Assembly: GCF_003334385.1 (NCBI RefSeq)
Contig: NZ_QOWN01000163.1
Reading direction: 5' to 3' (one strand)
DNA length: 581 nucleotides
Source: Escherichia coli
GTDB taxonomy: Bacteria; Pseudomonadota; Gammaproteobacteria; Enterobacterales; Enterobacteriaceae
In this document: positions 1-581 of the stretch, in pieces
Layout of the letters: every line of letters starts with the position of its first letter
How positions within the stretch are numbered: the stretch's first letter is position 1
Program-made: the position numbers and the translations under genes
Notes under the pieces: model-generated
Databases searched by the model: none
Seen by the model: only the letters and a program-made list of their open reading frames with translations
What the model was told of the DNA's origin: nothing

Positions 1-581
1 CTGACTGTTGTCAATCTCTGCCCACAGCGCCTCTGCCAGATGCGTTTTTCCTATCTTTTCCCGGAAAAGTTCCAGATAGCCCGCAGCATCATTGCTCGCC
101 CGTCCACTGGCTTCCACAAAAGCAGATTTACCCACCAGGTTGACGCTGCGCACATAAAACCAGAAATCCTTTCCGGGCTTAATGTGCGGACCGGAGACAC
201 TCCACTGACTGCCGGTCCCCAGATAACGGGCAGAGGTTTCCACCTGTGCGGCGTCTGCAATTTTTGCCTCCGAAAACCAGAACTCAAACTGCACCGTCGG
301 GTCATAAATGGTCAGTTTCGGGACTGCCGTTATCTGAAAATACCCCGGCGTCAGTTCAATGCTGGCCGGTGCCGCCGGTGCGTTAATCCGGAACGTGGTG
401 GTGGCGGGTTCGCCCTGCTGGCCATAGCTGTTAATCGCCCTGACCGTCAGGGTGTATTCCCCGGGAGGCAGGCCACTGAAACGGTGCTCCGTATCGGCAG
501 TGATGGCGGTGGTCAGCAGGCGGCTGTTCTCACCGCTTCCACTGGTCAGGCGCAGACTGAAGCGCACGCCCTTCACCACCC
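1..581 (-). CDS. J: Internal fragment (both ends outside the window) of a lambdoid phage/prophage tail-tip host-specificity protein, lambda gpJ-like (tip attachment / central tail fibre protein). Codons run on the minus strand from 579 to 1.
   Basis: Seen in sequence: the minus-strand frame 579..1 has 193 codons with no stop, and uses Leu CTG and GC-ending codons typical of enterobacterial genes. From memory of lambda gpJ: the translation shares stretches such as [21 protein letters not shown] and GRAS-DDA-GYL. Two FN3-type signatures are present ([22 protein letters not shown] and [22 protein letters not shown]). The track missed this frame, presumably because it has no start or stop inside the window. 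Confidence 0.85.
109..360 (-). other. Second, complete FN3-like domain module (residues about 74-157 of the window translation)
   Basis: Starts after the APAAPAS linker with [12 protein letters not shown]. It has a Trp-containing segment (FEFWFSE) and ends with the FN3-type signature [21 protein letters not shown]. Boundaries are approximate. Confidence 0.5.
382..581 (-). other. FN3-like domain module, N-terminal part truncated by the window edge (residues 1-66 of the window translation)
   Basis: Shows the FN3 F-G strand signature, with conserved Tyr, Val, Ala, Asn, Gly and Pro spaced as in [22 protein letters not shown], followed by TTTFRI. It is followed by an Ala/Pro-rich linker, APAAPAS. 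Boundaries are approximate. Confidence 0.5.

Follow-up and report, generated by a model that had tools for sequence, protein, structure and literature searches.

Reading frames in the window

The window, that is, the whole 581-nt stretch of DNA analysed here, contains a minus-strand frame with codons 579..1 that, in six-frame translation, runs for 193 codons without a stop and includes neither a start codon nor a stop codon. Stops interrupt the remaining two minus-strand frames (8 and 10) and two plus-strand frames (8 in each); the plus-strand frame 1..579 likewise consists of 193 open codons with no stop, an observation that the first-pass annotation, which had pointed out the window-wide minus-strand frame, overlooked. 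As that annotation also stated, the long minus-strand frame is missing from the list of open reading frames supplied with the sequence, in which the longest entry is an 84-aa ORF located in a different frame. The omission is mechanical: the frame 579..1 is absent because the list skips ORFs that run off either end of the source sequence.

Of 20,000 sequences simulated with a first-order Markov model built from the window's own dinucleotide transitions, 742 (3.7%) contained one or more frames that were open throughout, and full openness is, by itself, only moderately unlikely. Moreover, because the plus-strand frame 1..579 is open as well, an open frame alone does not fix the coding strand; the proof of coding for the frame 579..1 comes from homology, codon usage and the substitution pattern. 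The features discussed below and the properties of the principal frames are collected in Table 1.

Table 1. Reading frames, predicted domains and other features of the 581-nt window
Feature	Position	Strand	Remarks
gpJ coding fragment, 193 codons	1..579	minus	matches codons 645-837 in gpJ of E. coli SCU-104 (1176 codons in all)
gpJ frame	codons 579..1	minus	dN/dS 0.06-0.23; 0 stops
FNIII-1 / Ig_J, C-terminal two-thirds	376..576	minus	residues 2-68; aligned from lambda gpJ residue 647
Pro/Ala-rich inter-domain linker, APAAPASI	358..375	minus	small hypervariable patch
FNIII-2 / Ig_J_second, complete second Ig-like domain	64..372	minus	residues 70-172; Pfam and solved-structure alignment
Predicted start of the alpha-helical shaft	1..93	minus	alignment to lambda gpJ; boundary approximate, overlaps the end of Ig_J_second
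84-aa ORF of the ORF list	51..305	minus	ATG at 305..303; out of frame inside gpJ
Frame of the 84-aa ORF	contains 51..305	minus	dN/dS 1.07-4.2; 8 stops in the window
Antisense frame in codon register with gpJ	1..579	plus	open as a by-product of gpJ codon usage; dN/dS 1.1-1.9; 0 stops
Plus frame 2	starts at base 2	plus	dN/dS 0.12-0.49; 8 stops

Identification of the phage tail tip protein J

Searches of the translated frame 579..1 against protein databases, in line with a proposal in the first-pass annotation, returned strong matches to the phage tail tip protein J. The NCBIfam profile lambda_TipJ (NF049904) was matched with an E-value of 6.7e-97 and a score of 325 bits, with residues 2-192 of the window translation aligned to profile positions 646-837 of 1163. 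This score is far below the whole-protein cutoff of 1950 bits for lambda_TipJ because the window encodes a 193-aa fragment, that is, only 193 of approximately 1176 residues. The same translation matched the PHROGs tail fibre and 'central tail fiber J' families with E-values between 8.8e-116 and 1.7e-64. At the level of individual domains, two consecutive Pfam matches were obtained, namely, PF24421 (Ig_J; E-value of 3.5e-23, model positions 38-104 of 104) and PF24489 (Ig_J_second; 2e-39, model positions 2-104 of 105), so the J-specific pair of Ig-like/FNIII domains is found in the expected order, Ig_J followed by Ig_J_second, in agreement with the earlier description of a domain-structured protein in this frame. 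Finally, query residues 2-190 align with residues 647-836 of the solved structure of lambda gpJ (8IYK, chain J; E-value of 4.3e-72), with one single-residue gap, and further matches to solved gpJ structures were 8K35, 8XCG and 8XCI. We found nothing that contradicts the identification of the fragment as gpJ.

Under the nomenclature adopted for lambda gpJ (PMC11101478, PMC10721106), the Ig_J piece belongs to the first Ig-like domain after the hub domains, that is, FNIII-1, and the next domain is FNIII-2. The placement of the shaft in the window is approximate and derives from the upper helix of the lambda gpJ shaft, which spans residues 809-840 (PMC11101478). In the relatives of 1176 aa, the N-terminal hub and the C-terminal central fibre and receptor-binding regions are indicated by annotation and length only; the receptor-binding domain lies beyond the window, from which nothing can be inferred on receptor specificity.

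Taken together with the coding tests and comparisons presented below, these matches make us nearly certain that the window lies inside the gene for the lambda-type tail tip attachment (host-specificity) protein J, encoded on the minus strand in the frame 579..1, and that neither the 84-aa ORF nor the open plus-strand frame is coding, both being by-products of the gpJ sequence. The encoded piece comprises the greater part of FNIII-1, FNIII-2 in full and the beginning of the shaft. The most likely source is a lambdoid phage, or a prophage, with Escherichia coli or a close relative as its host.

Codon usage and selection in the six frames

A codon-usage log-odds score, trained on 941 codons from tail genes next to gpJ in E. 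coli SCU-104, the closest relative, assigned +70 bits to the frame 579..1 and between -29 and -67 bits to the other five frames. For the minus strand, where a comparison of the three frames had been suggested at the outset, the values are +70 bits for 579..1 versus -52 and -67 bits. Substitutions were compared across 11 relatives that range from 99% to 76% nucleotide identity, and they are concentrated at the third codon position of the frame 579..1, with counts at codon positions 1, 2 and 3 of, for example, 3, 2 and 21; 14, 9 and 47; and, in one of the most distant relatives (L011), 37, 23 and 80.

When dN/dS was estimated by the Nei-Gojobori method against seven of the 11 relatives, the values exceeded unity in four frames other than 579..1, the sole exception being plus frame 2. 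The low dN/dS of this frame is artefactual: its third positions coincide with the wobble positions of gpJ, and it carries 8 stops; more generally, a low dN/dS in an antisense frame is, on its own, no evidence of coding. Thus, 579..1 is the only stop-free frame that evolves under purifying selection and the only one with coding-like codon usage.

Relatives, gene neighbourhood and mosaic structure

Sequences that match the window are common in E. coli: 2020 of the 5426 complete genomes contain at least one, and the number of matching places in these genomes has a median of 2 and a maximum of 11. The top genome matches show 99.0% nucleotide identity over all 581 bases and fall within coding sequences annotated 'gpJ: phage attachment tail tip protein J'. 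In addition, the window is matched by 122 phage records, for the most part from lambdoid E. coli phages, Stx-converting ones included; the closest of them is Escherichia phage PhiR12_2 (98.1% over 581 bases), in a coding sequence annotated 'tail tip host specificity protein J'. The gpJ of SCU-104 (WP_174147695.1), one of the 99.0% matches and so named in RefSeq, and the J protein of PhiR12_2 (XSB41726.1) are encoded in the same frame as the one identified here and carry equivalent annotations. A 100% identical copy was not found in the phage and E. coli genome collections searched, where 99.0% was the highest value, and an exact 135-nt pattern (window positions 325-459) had no match in viral contigs.

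In SCU-104, the gpJ gene is intact, with 3531 nt encoding 1176 aa; the claim that the gene extends far beyond the window is thereby upheld, the nearest relatives being 3531 nt long and the window accounting for less than 200 of their codons (Table 1). The order of genes in both SCU-104 and PhiR12_2, namely, tape measure (H), M, L, K, I and J, is the canonical lambda tail-tip order; it was read in these relatives, as the window itself comes without flanks.

The window differs from the SCU-104 gene at only 6 bases (positions 360, 361, 363, 367, 370 and 373), two of the differences changing an amino acid, and all of them are confined to the 14-nt stretch 360-373, where SCU-104 encodes AGV and the window encodes ASI; the other 567 bases are identical. 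This stretch lies in the linker between the two Ig-like domains, which, in an alignment of 11 sequences, differs in nearly every relative (PATI, PSRI, AVPATI and AKPATI, as well as PAGV in SCU-104 versus PASI in the window). The linker patch resembles either a micro-hypervariable spot or the trace of a short conversion event. Similarity to some of the relatives is unevenly distributed around the same region. Over positions 1-342, the Stx1a-converting phage Stx1_111698 (L004) shows 100% identity with the window, but over 343-581 it is 9-17% divergent, and the opposite gradient is seen in two other relatives (L010 and L011), with 67-74% identity over 1-342 and 83-89% over 343-581. As judged from these alignments, the gradients look like the mosaic recombination for which lambdoid tail genes are known, and the breakpoint would lie in or close to the inter-domain linker, around position 343.

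In PhiR12_2, J is annotated with only 2865 nt (954 aa; positions 4071-6935), compared with 3531 nt in PhiR12_2_star and SCU-104, and the next gene encodes a 'tail fiber protein' of 163 aa; further along, at 9541-11822, a transposase and an ATP-binding helper gene, which make up an insertion sequence, are located amid the downstream tail-fibre genes. Judging from this annotation, the C-terminus of the PhiR12_2 J protein may have been truncated or replaced. In SCU-104, the tail-fibre genes downstream of gpJ (6786-7970) are annotated as partial pseudogenes, so that this prophage may be defective despite its intact gpJ.

Intact gene or pseudogene

These observations bear on whether the gene sampled by the window is functional. 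Many lambdoid prophages in E. coli are defective, and the copy examined here could come from such a defective or cryptic prophage, in which case it would be a pseudogene, cut short or interrupted at some point beyond the window. Compatible with this scenario are the number of matching places per E. coli genome, the pseudogenes downstream of gpJ in SCU-104 and the short J annotated in PhiR12_2 with insertion-sequence genes nearby. Against this scenario, the 579 coding bases of the window are free of stops, the window is separated by only six substitutions, two of them amino-acid changing, from a gpJ gene that is intact at 1176 aa, and dN/dS in the gpJ frame is low across the relatives. On balance, we regard the pseudogene scenario as rather improbable, although it is by far the most serious of the alternatives considered here.

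The open antisense frame and the 84-aa ORF

In principle, a protein could be encoded by the plus-strand frame 1..579, whose codons are in register with those of gpJ; such a protein could take the place of gpJ or be the product of a gene that overlaps it in antisense. The frame has no stops in 193 codons and is open in 9 of the 11 relatives, down to 76% identity; furthermore, for the gpJ protein encoded in the window (14 Leu and 17 Ser residues) and the local codon usage, an antisense frame free of stops has a probability of only 0.03-0.08, a value that is low yet unremarkable for a single window. However, the frame is broken by a stop in the two remaining relatives (L005 and L009), its dN/dS gives no indication of purifying selection, its codon-usage score is -29 bits, and it has no match among the NCBIfam families. 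At a nucleotide identity of 0.76, the amino-acid identity in this frame is 0.55, compared with 0.76 for gpJ, and promoter-like sites were found on neither strand of the window. The synonymous sites of gpJ, which an overlapping gene would restrain, change freely, with dS up to 0.89.

An explanation that does not involve selection on the antisense strand is provided by the codon usage of gpJ as a whole. In the SCU-104 gene, TTA, CTA and TCA together account for 11 of the 1176 codons (0 TTA, 1 CTA and 10 TCA), and, because these codons are nearly absent, the antisense strand contains open runs of 361 and 283 codons; the window falls inside the 283-codon run, and the 361-codon run is elsewhere in the gene. 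Gene-wide avoidance of these three codons thus yields long antisense runs without any selection for translation. An antisense gene in this frame was therefore rejected: that the frame encodes a protein in either of the two forms appears to be an extremely improbable proposition, and we give next to no credence to the notion that translation as an overlapping antisense gene within the tail-tip gene keeps it open.

The same virtually negligible standing is assigned to the 84-aa ORF as a real small gene: it starts with an ATG and stays uninterrupted in relatives as distant as 84% nucleotide identity, but it is wholly contained, in another frame, within a strongly supported gene, matches no PHROGs or NCBIfam family, has a codon-usage score of -67 bits and a dN/dS above unity, contains two internal stops in each of two relatives of 76-78% identity (L010 and L011), the second of which has also lost the stop codon of the ORF itself, and retains an amino-acid identity of only 0.38-0.42 where nucleotide identity is 0.76-0.78 and gpJ amino-acid identity is likewise 0.76-0.78. 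The first-pass annotation had dismissed this ORF as an out-of-frame artefact, which agrees with the lack of a family match, the dN/dS and the stops in distant relatives, and had described its product as rich in Arg, Trp and Ser. Arg and Trp are indeed clearly enriched (12% and 7%, compared with 5% and 2% in the frame 579..1), and Ser is only slightly so (11% versus 9%). We conclude that the gpJ frame is the one that carries the coding function in the window.

Other sequence elements

A search of both strands against Rfam, at E-values up to 1, yielded no match in the window, and no inverted repeats were detected in it. The sole repeat is a 13-nt direct repeat, AAAACCAGAA(A/C)TC, with two copies at 156-168 and 273-285, which on the coding strand gives rise to (E/D)-F-W-F motifs within FNIII-2 (FEFWFSE and KDFWFYV); it is treated here as a coincidence of coding sequence. 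Two terminator-like hairpins were detected, compared with 0.5 +/- 0.8 expected, and both are within coding sequence and are judged to have arisen by chance. Together with the promoter scan already mentioned (zero sites on both strands), these RNA, repeat and terminator checks suggest no additional features in the window.

Implications for ORF annotation

The gpJ segment comes from a gene that is already known, in a family whose structure has been solved and which is common among E. coli prophages, and it offers nothing new biologically. Its importance is one of quality control only, the FNIII 'gate' region of J being well characterised and widespread in E. coli prophages. An ORF list that drops end-truncated ORFs hides the real gene in short windows and displays a spurious ORF instead. 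Furthermore, an open frame is insufficient as evidence of coding, given that the sense frame and the in-register antisense frame are both open here; only homology, codon usage and dN/dS separate the gpJ frame from its antisense counterpart.

Proposed function and comparison with known systems

In terms of the lambda structure, the window would comprise the 'gate' segment of gpJ. [quoted passage not shown] By homology with lambda gpJ, given an alignment that extends over 189 residues, a similar gating mechanism can be proposed for the protein described here. In such a mechanism, the three-helix bundle below FNIII-2 would keep the cone shut; binding of an outer-membrane receptor by the C-terminal receptor-binding domain would cause the helix bundle to flip; and this flip would, in turn, allow the FNIII strings to separate and the tube to open for DNA ejection.

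The similarity to lambda gpJ extends over the entire window, which aligns end to end with a single segment of the lambda protein and shows the same domain order, and the neighbourhood of J in the nearest relatives is the same as in lambda. There are also differences. The phages of the lambda group have only about 69-71% nucleotide identity to the window, which thus represents a diverged allele; lambda gpJ consists of 1132 aa, compared with 1176 aa in the closest relatives of the window; and the C-terminal receptor-binding domain, which sets the receptor, may differ between lambda gpJ and the gene sampled here. A more distant parallel, drawn from published descriptions, is the baseplate hub protein pb3 of phage T5, in which the same four hub domains are followed by two FNIII domains (PMC10721106); unlike the arrangement proposed here, the FNIII strings of pb3 stand apart instead of closing into a cone, and T5 has a distinct protein for its central fibre (PMC10721106).
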